20,000 bases of DNA, from the IMG/VR virus record IMGVR_UViG_3300025853_000059. The stretch is one strand, 5' to 3'. Within the stretch, counting starts at the first letter, position 1. Every line of letters begins with the position of its first letter. Made by a program: the position numbers and the translations under genes. The stretch comes from an uncultured virus (IMG/VR IMGVR_UViG_3300025853_000059) (taxonomy: Duplodnaviria > Heunggongvirae > Uroviricota > Caudoviricetes). The notes below the pieces were generated by a model that saw nothing but the letters and a program-made list of their open reading frames with translations, searched no databases and was not told the origin of the DNA. Shown here piece after piece: positions 18,825 to 19,792 of the stretch.

Positions 18825-18879
18825 AATTTTTTAATTTTTAATGTGCCAAAGAACACTTTTGTAACTTGTAATAGAATAT

Positions 18880-18914
18880 AAAAAGAAAAAGGGACATAGC
18901 CACGCTATCTCCCT
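18880..18914 (-). terminator. Intrinsic terminator closing the tRNA cassette
   Basis: Minus strand AGGGAGATAGC-GTG-GCTATGTCCCT (one G/G mismatch) followed by TTTTCTTTTT, about 20 nt after tRNA-Thr. Confidence 0.75.
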
Positions 18915-18935
18915 AGTTTTCCTTACCTACTCTAG

Positions 18936-19008
18936 AGCCACAAGACGGACTCGAACCGCCGACCATCTGATTACAAATCAGAAGCTCTACCAACTGAGCT
19001 ATTGTGGC
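18936..19008 (-). tRNA. trnT: tRNA-Thr(UGU)
   Basis: GCCACAA TA GCTC AGTTGGTA GAGC T TCTGA TT-TGT-AA TCAGA TGGTC GGCGG TTCGAGT CCGTC TTGTGGC T. 73 nt, no encoded CCA. Confidence 0.97.
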
Positions 19009-19012
19009 ATTT

Positions 19013-19085
19013 AGACTCAATCACCTCACTATCTGCAGGTGCATGAGGTTGAGGAGCTAATTGCATACACAACCTAATTGAGTCC
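19013..19085 (-). ncRNA. Unassigned structured RNA candidate A (73 nt)
   Basis: Terminal stem GGACTCAATT/GATTGAGTCT with internal stems. It fills the Ser-Thr spacer. Confidence 0.55.
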
Positions 19086-19088
19086 GTG

Positions 19089-19173
19089 CGGAAGATGTAG
19101 GATTCGAACCTACGGTACCTTGCGGTACAACAGTTTTCAAGACTGCCGCATTCGACCACTCTGCCAATCTTCC
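19089..19173 (-). tRNA. trnS: tRNA-Ser(UGA)
   Basis: GGAAGAT...GCAGT CT-TGA-AA ACTGT, long variable arm GTACC-GCAA-GGTAC, GTAGG TTCGAAT CCTAC ATCTTCC G. 85 nt, no CCA. Confidence 0.97.
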
Positions 19174-19179
19174 AATATT

Positions 19180-19250
19180 GTAGGATATCGCTTAACCTAC
19201 GAAAGCTGGCCACACTTTCTTCAGAATCTAGCGGACTAGATTGCTACGAT
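19180..19250 (-). ncRNA. Unassigned structured RNA candidate B (~71 nt)
   Basis: Three consecutive hairpins: AATCTAG/CTAGATT, GAAAGT/GCTTTC and GTAGG/CCTAC. It fills the Arg-Ser spacer. Confidence 0.55.
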
Positions 19251-19257
19251 TTTTTTG

Positions 19258-19331
19258 TGAACCCGGAAGGATTCGAACCTTCGACCGTCAGCTTAGAAGG
19301 CTGATGCTCTATCCAGCTGAGCTACGAGTCC
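19258..19331 (-). tRNA. trnR: tRNA-Arg(UCU)
   Basis: GGACTCG TA GCTC AGCTGGATA GAGC A TCAGC CT-TCT-AA GCTGA CGGTC GAAGG TTCGAAT CCTTC CGGGTTC A. 74 nt, no CCA. Confidence 0.97.
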
Positions 19332-19336
19332 ATAAT

Positions 19337-19432
19337 AAGGGGCTTCACCTCTTTAGCGCGCTTCCAGCGTCAAGGTCCCAACCTAAGCAGCCCGTCGACT
19401 GTAACCTTAGGATTTTACGTTTTTCTCCCCTT
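19337..19432 (-). ncRNA. Unassigned structured RNA candidate C (~96 nt, three-way junction)
   Basis: Closing stem AAGGGG/CCCCTT, arm CCTAAG..CAGTC-GACG-GGCTG CTTAGG, and arm ACCTT..CGCT-GGA-AGCG..GAGGT. Confidence 0.6.
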
Positions 19433-19454
19433 TTGTATTTTAAAGAACGTTTTG

Positions 19455-19540
19455 TACTACTGGCCGGGATCGAACCGGCACGGACATTACTGCCCAAGGG
19501 ATTTTAAGTCCCTCGTGTCTACCTATTCCACCACAGTAGC
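19455..19540 (-). tRNA. trnL: tRNA-Leu(UAA)
   Basis: GCTACTG TG GTGGAATAGGTAGACAC G AGGGA CT-TAA-AA TCCCT, variable arm GGGCA-GTAA-TGTCC, GCCGG TTCGATC CCGGC CAGTAGT A. 86 nt, no CCA. Confidence 0.97.
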
Positions 19541-19551
19541 TCGGTTAGGTG

Positions 19552-19746
19552 TTATTCACCTAGTTGTTGAATTCGATCTTCAAGAAGATGAATTTCGTTT
19601 TTAAGAGCATTATATTCATCAACCACATCTAATTTTTTAGGATTTTCTGGATGGTATTGCCATAGGTCTTCTAGGCGATTGGTGTAGAAAATAACATCAT
19701 TAATTAGATTTGCTTTTAGATTTTGTTTTTCTTCGTAGTGTGTCAT
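19552..19746 (-). CDS. Hypothetical protein
   Basis: The ORF track gives 19552..19764. The likely start is ATG 19746 (MTHYEEK), whose context AATAAAGTT-ATG matches that of the HD gene (ATAAAAGTT-ATG). Confidence 0.7.
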   Translation of the reverse strand: MTHYEEKQNLKANLINDVIFYTNRLEDLWQYHPENPKKLDVVDEYNALKNEIHLLEDRIQQLGE

Positions 19747-19760
19747 AACTTTATTTTTAT

Positions 19761-19792
19761 TCAATATACAAAATAACTTTTAAATATCCCAA
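19761..19792 (-). promoter_or_regulatory. Possible host-type promoter feeding the tRNA cassette
   Basis: TTG-N21-TATATTGA, an imperfect match to the Bacteroidota consensus. Confidence 0.35.

Follow-up and report, generated by a model that had tools for sequence, protein, structure and literature searches.

What fills the spacers of a phage tRNA array? The question is raised by the DNA of an uncultured virus (IMG/VR record IMGVR_UViG_3300025853_000059), of which we analysed a stretch of 20,000 nucleotides (nt), referred to here as the window, at the end of a 73,642-base virus contig (~48% complete) with baseplate-wedge genes. On the minus strand lie, in this order, tRNA-Leu, an element C, tRNA-Arg, an element B, tRNA-Ser, an element A, tRNA-Thr and a terminator-like hairpin (ARAGORN and Rfam for the tRNAs), which is the order given by an earlier reading of the letters alone, hereafter the original prediction. 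That prediction took the spacers for three distinct structured RNAs, and we find that each is its own conserved family in related uncultured phages, with homologs, covarying stems and no match in Rfam; A, B and C are almost certainly real structured RNAs. We put at roughly 0.55 the probability of the whole reading developed below, i.e. that the array is read as one transcript, that RNase P and RNase Z would release the elements, that B would dimerise, and that the freed RNAs would act in trans as protein-binding decoys or scaffolds. The features of the array are:

19454..19540, minus strand: tRNA-Leu(TAA), CCA not encoded
19338..19431, minus strand: element C, 94 nt; closed three-way junction of P1, P2 with a GACG tetraloop and P3 with a T-loop-like cap, and a long A-rich linker
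19356-19361, minus strand: conserved palindrome GCGCGC of C
19257..19331, minus strand: tRNA-Arg(TCT), CCA not encoded
19180..19256, minus strand: element B; A-tract and AUCG, optional variable hairpin P1, P2 with a palindromic loop, P3 with the near-invariant loop UUAAGCGAUAU
19207-19212, minus strand: P2 loop palindrome of B, UGGCCA in the window sequence
19247-19250 with 19187-19190, minus strand: candidate pseudoknot of B, AUCG with CGAU, near-invariant
19088..19173, minus strand: tRNA-Ser(TGA), CCA not encoded
19014..19084, minus strand: element A, 71 nt; three-way junction with an 8-bp P1 directly on a 5-bp P3, a UA linker and P2 with a conserved loop
18935..19008, minus strand: tRNA-Thr(TGT), CCA not encoded
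18880..18913, minus strand: terminator-like hairpin and U-tract after tRNA-Thr

These four are the only tRNAs in the whole 73.6 kb contig at default settings. The spacers of C, B and A measure 122, 83 and 79 nt by ARAGORN ends and 123, 84 and 80 nt by Rfam ends, the latter being the lengths originally given. Their GC content (0.44, 0.39 and 0.43 respectively) compares with 0.23 pooled, and a maximum of 0.36, in the contig's 27 other intergenic gaps, which bears out the contrast between GC-rich spacers and AT-rich gaps; the AT-rich linkers ATTAT, AATATT and AAAT are present as described. The proposed terminator was upheld in part: hairpin and U-tract fold with a z-score of -3.35 (0 of 200 shuffles as good) and similar hairpins occur in loci L002, L006, L083 and L009 (L-numbers denote fetched homolog loci), but a terminator scan did not report it.

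Covariation in the three elements

Homologs were collected in loci that are enriched for tRNA arrays. The first loci, anchored on neighbouring proteins, carried tRNAs in 29 of 84 cases and included relatives of all three spacers. Pattern scans, two for each element, returned 45 and 52 viral stretches for C, 84 and 95 for B, and 47 viral and 60 metagenome stretches for A, many of those for A by chance. Chance matches were removed by eye and by regular expression before alignment (11 of the 47 viral A stretches were kept and many of the 60 metagenome ones removed; C lost one of 45, L096), which left 21 distinct A cores, 33 distinct C cores with 10 further C sequences, and 51 distinct B cores. 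The covariation alignments hold 21 A, 46 B and 33 C sequences; five distinct B cores (L130, L165, L171, L208 and L213) were omitted, mostly for long inserts, and a second C set of 25 chosen sequences includes distant members. Significance was assessed with 500 shuffles and slid controls.

In each family the stems are maintained by compensating changes. For A, 97.2% of cells are paired and 9 of 22 pairs vary on both sides, giving a covariation of 0.358 against 0.192 in shuffles (0/500 as high), while the slid controls pair at most 43%. The stems of C are paired in 98.9% of cells with nine pairs varying on both sides (0/500), and in the 25-sequence set the figures rise to 99.3% and 11 compensating pairs, P1 included. 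P2 and P3 of B covary at seven pairs (0/500), and a P2 of at least 5 bp directly adjoins P3 in 45 of 50 distinct B middles (shuffle mean 7.3, maximum 14). An isolated pair in C, which is CG in 22 and GC in 3 of the 25 sequences and flips in a clade of three, suggests a tertiary contact. A possible UGC/GCA loop-loop pairing in A has no both-side changes and one G-U variant. A pseudoknot between the GACG loop of C and ACGU was rejected, as the changes are uncompensated.

The original prediction also held that the spacers fold into multi-stem structures and that their G-U pairs work only on the tRNA strand. Measured against shuffles, single-sequence folding agrees with the former for A (z -2.73) and B (z -1.97) but not for C. 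The G-U pairs do lie on the tRNA strand in the alignments, and the sense strand is the more stable in 21 of 21 members of A and 32 of 33 of C but in only 16 of 46 of B, whose plus strand in the window has z -2.42; A and C are thus more stable as sense RNA, and B, thermodynamically, is not.

Covariance-model searches of 100 sources each returned no distant A relatives, and as distant C relatives only L221, L255 and, weakly, L070 (25 bits). The last, at L070:4001-4089 after a tRNA-Leu, is a C-like element whose closing stem is changed yet still paired. The A and C models matched neither B nor other spacer families.

A palindromic loop in element B

The P2 loop of B changes its sequence while keeping its symmetry. 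A perfect palindrome of at least 4 nt is present in 25 of 32 distinct loops (mean 9.3 and maximum 20 in 5000 shuffles), and in 15 of the 32 it reaches 6 nt or more (shuffle mean 1.7, maximum 8); 10 different tetramers occupy the centre. In columns 45-48 of the alignment, palindromes account for 9 of 18 distinct tetramers, compared with at most 5 of 21 elsewhere in the alignment, and the palindrome columns covary at 0.644 against 0.167 (0/500), directly adjacent bases included. Covariance of adjacent bases has been argued to be intermolecular, and it is present at dimer contacts solved by cryo-electron microscopy (PMC12286853; this and the other papers cited by PMC number were available to us in part). 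Adjacent-nucleotide covariation that keeps the palindrome was found in the loop of B and not seen in A. We consider it quite probable that B forms a kissing-loop homodimer, because palindrome covariation of this sort has been published as the mark of such dimers in OLE and GOLLD.

The comparison with these large RNAs extends to their setting and to the tetramers themselves: GOLLD and ROOL are often near phage tRNA islands, and loop L9.3 of OLE switches between GGCC, GAUC and AGCU (PMC12286853), all of which are carried by B loops. However, GOLLD, ROOL and OLE are hundreds of nt long with at least five contacts per chain, whereas B has 50-80 nt and one predicted symmetric contact. Nothing like their large ornate fold was found in the element cores, which measure 71-94 nt and have no Rfam match.

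In C, the GCGCGC hexamer is self-complementary in 33/33 sequences and is kept in short variants without the T-loop-like cap. Two observations concern the surroundings of B. Phage transfer-messenger RNA (tmRNA) genes directly follow it at L147:770-1132 and L148:360-691; a single sub-threshold permuted-tmRNA match in L147 spans B together with the neighbouring tRNA and tmRNA. At L349:191-289, with no tRNA nearby, there is a hairpin with a B-like loop start, another putative pseudoknot tetramer and a loop-complementary G-run upstream; it resembles the pistol loop but is probably chance or a terminator.

Release, function and competing explanations

The original prediction set each element between two tRNAs, and as a rule this did not carry over to the homologs, where tRNAs flank both sides in 37 of 62 contexts for B, 16 of 40 for C and 2 of 29 for A, some contexts being cut by contig ends. 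At least one tRNA adjoins B in 58 of the 62 (B is found after at least 12 tRNA types), C in all 40 and A in 13; A also lies between small open reading frames (ORFs) or beside other structured-looking RNAs. An A subfamily at L266:363-480 (also L264, L273, L281, L301 and L316) lies between small ORFs, with a direct repeat of the gene-start region on its flanks, and looks like a gene cassette within an array of small genes.

Among the distinct tRNAs of the loci, 363 of 422 lack an encoded CCA, 25 have it and 34 were unparsed. In CCA-less precursors RNase Z cuts after the discriminator, and RNase P cuts the 5' end of each tRNA. Since both neighbours of each element in the window are CCA-less tRNAs, release by tRNA processing is plausible, and since a boxA-like motif moreover precedes C, release from a single operon by RNase P and RNase Z appears likely. 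No RNase Z is encoded on the contig (~48% complete); among 14 control genomes, Bacteroides thetaiotaomicron included, the RNase Z family gave a signal in all 14, nine above the cut-off (not itemised). On balance, judging from the sequences, we expect the elements to be released as discrete RNAs. The features bearing on transcription are:

19763..19792, minus strand: candidate promoter TTGG...TATATT, preceding the small ORF and the tRNA array
19552..19746, minus strand: small ORF, 64 aa from ATG, at the head of the putative operon
19438..19448, minus strand: boxA-like antitermination motif GTTCTTTAAAA, upstream of C, after tRNA-Leu

The boxA-like motif lies in the first ~22 nt of spacer C, which are outside element C. 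It is matched once in the window, against an expectation of 0.07 and with matches in 14 of 200 shuffles, and is identical to the 11-bp boxA of PMC7862264, as given in the available part of that paper. Like the palindrome covariation in B, this motif has no mention in the original prediction. A related motif in the fetched loci is near a same-strand tRNA at 18 of 23 distinct sites, in loci that, as noted, are enriched for tRNA arrays. A second boxA-like motif (18844-18854) lies directly past the terminator-like hairpin. The candidate promoter scores 9 of 12 in a scan that gave 6 sites in total against 5.1 by chance, five occurrences of the motif pattern in the contig being on the minus strand and one on the plus strand; we take it to resemble Bacteroidota promoters. 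For the small ORF, a PHROG search gave no family, and a small hairpin at 19541-19560 (region z -3.76) overlaps its stop just ahead of tRNA-Leu.

Contigs from RNA libraries (metatranscriptomes of marsh and freshwater studies, in runs chosen using this stretch) cover parts of the array. Contig X2 has an exact 171-nt piece across tRNA-Thr and A and also matches much of the window exactly, and contig X3 has a piece across tRNA-Arg, C and tRNA-Leu with 9 differences; depth in these contigs cannot rank the parts.

In the mechanism that we propose, A, B, C and the four tRNAs would be transcribed as one stable-RNA precursor, in which the host RNase P cut would set each element's 3' end and the RNase Z cut the 5' end of the next element. 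The closed stems of A and C, or the knotted 5' end of B, would resist decay; B would pair with its own copy as a kissing-loop homodimer; and the freed RNAs would act in trans as protein-binding decoys or scaffolds that sequester host protein during infection. Protein binding is preferred because unpaired nucleotides that hardly vary suggest a surface for binding, and a tRNA-specific role in cis is disfavoured because the elements exchange freely between different tRNA neighbours. That a host protein is bound or sequestered in infection is offered as a tentative suggestion, with the odds somewhat against it.

Several observations weigh against this reading or parts of it. Exact search patterns fix the conserved cores, so that core invariance is partly built in, and related phages do not count as independent samples. 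Taken by itself, the sequence of C has no folding advantage over its shuffles (z -0.06, 87 of 200 as good), so its structure is taken from covariation. In 15 of 29 contexts A has no tRNA at all in the fetched flank, and tRNA punctuation is therefore not its sole route of release. For B, 7 of 32 loops, the GAAC group included, have no palindrome of 4 nt, and at the aligned columns symmetry is missing in 14 of 46 rows, five of them GAAC. The pseudoknot of B has no compensatory change: a relaxed scan of 95 stretches gave 87 with CGAT, one true TGAT variant and seven read as chance; one variant has a wobble at this site, and in another (L332, 3 loci) a pair is lost. We regard the pseudoknot as plausible, not proven. 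The palindrome switch of C is confined to one clade and the same bases also pair in the covarying T-loop stem; because the hexamer switches in only that clade, a C dimer is weakly supported. Finally, the RNA data are contigs, giving neither ends, strand nor level, and DNA carry-over is possible.

One alternative is a role in cis: while still part of the precursor, the elements would insulate folding, block nucleases or help the neighbouring tRNAs to mature, and would later be degraded. The tight spacing would fit: the AUCG of B stands 6 nt away from the tRNA before it in 32 of 50 distinct sequences, and C adjoins a tRNA in every context. We nevertheless consider such a role unlikely: tRNAs next to one another can do without such an element, 95 of 299 distinct spacers in the loci being shorter than 15 nt; locus L082 is without B, and A is present away from tRNAs; and simple insulators would not give palindrome covariation or invariant unpaired cores.

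It is improbable, too, that any of the elements (the likeliest being B or C) cleaves itself as a ribozyme of some class not yet described and thereby helps to free tRNA ends. The analogy is with theta ribozymes, which are small, sit at the 3' ends of mostly CCA-less tRNAs and occur in phages with predicted Bacteroidota hosts (PMC10879173). A, B and C are likewise small structured RNAs beside CCA-less phage tRNAs, at whose 3' ends they may stand, with near-invariant junction nucleotides, a candidate pseudoknot in B and a candidate tertiary pair in C. In contrast to theta ribozymes, however, they belong to aquatic rather than gut phages, and A and C often come before a tRNA, not after it. Ribozymes had been suggested as one possible function, and known classes found no backing: Rfam gave no ribozyme match in the window or in 40 homolog loci, a loose descriptor of the hepatitis delta virus (HDV)-like double pseudoknot with a catalytic C in J4/2 found none in 100 family sequences, and loose core motifs gave 0 of 100 sequences for hammerhead, twister and pistol and, for twister-sister, only a similar hexamer in 5 of 33 C sequences, these motif tests having no positive control. 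The covariation-supported, end-to-end P1 of A and C, which pairs 5' end with 3' end, is incompatible with the theta/HDV topology. Nor is there a counterpart of the theta G1 within 5 nt of the tRNA 3' end: B starts with an A-tract and has copies without an upstream tRNA, A closely follows a tRNA in 2 of 29 contexts, and the G-rich 5' strand of C pairs with its own 3' end. A hammerhead reading of CUGAAGA in the window's B was rejected, since there is no GAAA partner and the homologs are without CUGAAGA.

A low probability likewise attaches to the elements being tRNA mimics or relics that decoy anticodon nucleases or another tRNA-binding defence, with A, possibly itself a substrate of RNase P or RNase Z, as the best candidate. 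The 8+5-bp coaxial stack of A, with its UA linker and no junction nucleotides, is like the top half of a tRNA; run in mitochondrial mode, ARAGORN reports a tRNA in 5 of 21 A sequences, compared with 2 of 420 shuffles; and A can occur without tRNAs. However, the D and anticodon arms of these calls conflict with the covarying P2 of A and the called anticodons differ, while bacterial mode makes no tRNA call in 100 family sequences at a 90% threshold. The P3 loop of A is without the T-loop consensus, and the nuclease-decoy idea of the original prediction finds no support, as no element, B and C included, has a conserved 7-nt anticodon-like loop.

The remaining alternative would trace the conservation not to RNA function but to signals in the DNA (palindromes bound by proteins, or sites of recombination), to short peptides or to neutral hitchhiking, and is very improbable: palindromes are also typical of DNA sites, and there is an open frame across A in the window and a 14-codon frame over part of A in L266, but the one-strand, G-U-tolerant compensatory changes in multi-branch stems largely refute it, the B palindrome changes sequence yet keeps symmetry, and the frame across A is broken by single-base indels in several homologs.

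Exchange of spacer elements and relation to known RNAs

A, B and C are optional modules. Locus L082 does not differ from the window in C or anywhere from tRNA-Ser through the terminator, yet it has another tRNA-Arg allele and no B, which suggests that modules are exchanged when conserved tRNA or flanking sequence recombines. Among HD-anchored loci with at least two tRNAs (n=18, many incomplete at their ends), nine are without A, B or C and none has all three. Contig joints that skip A, B or C were considered as splicing, which was rejected; they are read as relatives without the module because DNA loci with short spacers exist.

The wedge protein of the contig is common to three of five larger genomes that carry A, B or C (45-52% identity), and two of these three encode bS21. 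For bS21 myoviruses, Bacteroidetes hosts have been predicted (PMC9723584, available part), and since relatives sharing the wedge protein encode bS21, a Bacteroidota host is likely. Copies of the elements are nearly absent from bacterial and archaeal genomes, where true copies make up one of five matches for B and one of 28 for C, and the one match for A is not a true copy. Both true copies, L325 (a tRNA array in a Gammaproteobacteria bin) and L486 (674 bp, in a Schleiferiaceae bin), are weak host hints because the contigs look like phage fragments. In a blastn search of INPHARED no record reached 80% cover, the best being 31% over tRNA-sized pieces. Elsewhere in the contig (G000:C1:2120-13936) a 3938-aa protein has long Gly-Ser-Thr-rich repeats.

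Other spacers of the loci also look structured. A fourth family, D (L065:411-540, L088:541-670, L097:843-938, L012:5358-5450, L225 and L284), often adjoins A and has a purine/pyrimidine closing stem, conserved junction motifs and variable arms in 11 distinct sequences (one regular expression); it has no Rfam match in the loci scanned. At least nine more structured-looking families each occur in at least two arrays: L001:5136-5234/L174, L004:1041-1139/L080/L092, L120:405-493/L127, L135:839-946/L178/L181/L199, L090/L119/L140, L158/L180, L015/L158, L166/L205 and L175/L193. Between tRNA-Gly and tRNA-Phe (L137:910-1170, L141, L144, L152, L156, L196 and L198) a promoter-like motif, a short His/Cys frame and a terminator-like hairpin form what looks like an attenuator-type leader. 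A short conserved motif stands straight after several different tRNAs, often before terminators or hairpins (L004:1214-1304, L009, L010, L016, L018, L221 and L255), and an RNase P core motif is present in 2 of 501 loci.

Against Rfam 15, only tRNAs reached the gathering threshold in the window, and A, B and C alone were unmatched at E≤10; at E≤0.05 the 40 homolog loci gave only tRNA, tmRNA and tRNA look-alikes. The nearest relatives in kind are RNAC and RNAD, two RNAs from the tRNA cluster of phage T4 that are freed along with its tRNAs. These are small phage RNAs (species 1 and 2) described as of unknown function (PMC9697503). A, B and C resemble them as small RNAs inside a phage tRNA operon, a likeness of kind, and differ in forming three exchangeable families, one with a dimer signature, with more families in relatives.

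Bacterial Y RNAs (YrlA) are small, have a closing stem and lie near tRNA-like genes, all of which A, B and C have in common with them. In the window and homolog loci the YrlA model gave scores below threshold that overlapped tRNAs. The Ro60 TROVE domain was found, weakly, in one of five carrier genomes, a search that did not take in the window's own contig (~48% complete).

Candidate structured RNAs of viruses have been modelled from IMG/VR (8495 models; Fremin 2023, PMC10690425) and may include A, B and C; six 10-11-nt motifs were unmatched in three tables of that paper, which list candidate properties. The accessible part of a review of RNA assembly (PMC12990946) has nothing resembling them, and no description was found in the literature searched, most subscription papers being outside its reach. 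It is well supported by these sequence comparisons that A, B and C represent three families of small RNA that are new, though their general kind is known; they are absent from Rfam, and the models of Fremin 2023 may hold them.

Annotations of phage tRNA clusters usually leave the spacers blank; those studied here are separate RNA genes whose structure is under selection. Spacer RNAs that are swapped like accessory genes mean that a layer of phage-host biology is being missed. A broader and distinctly speculative view, which we think doubtful at present, is that in large aquatic Bacteroidota-type phages the tRNA arrays serve as plug-and-play vectors for at least a dozen swappable, uncatalogued small RNAs that tRNA enzymes of the host excise and that serve the phage as accessory effectors against it, among which B would be a 50-80 nt homodimer whose 9-10 palindromes form a loop code for self versus co-infecting phage. 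If B is a true dimer, few natural RNAs for which evolution gives evidence of symmetric self-assembly would be smaller. With three short, synthesisable elements and their natural variants, the purpose of RNAs of the T4 RNAC/RNAD type becomes testable.

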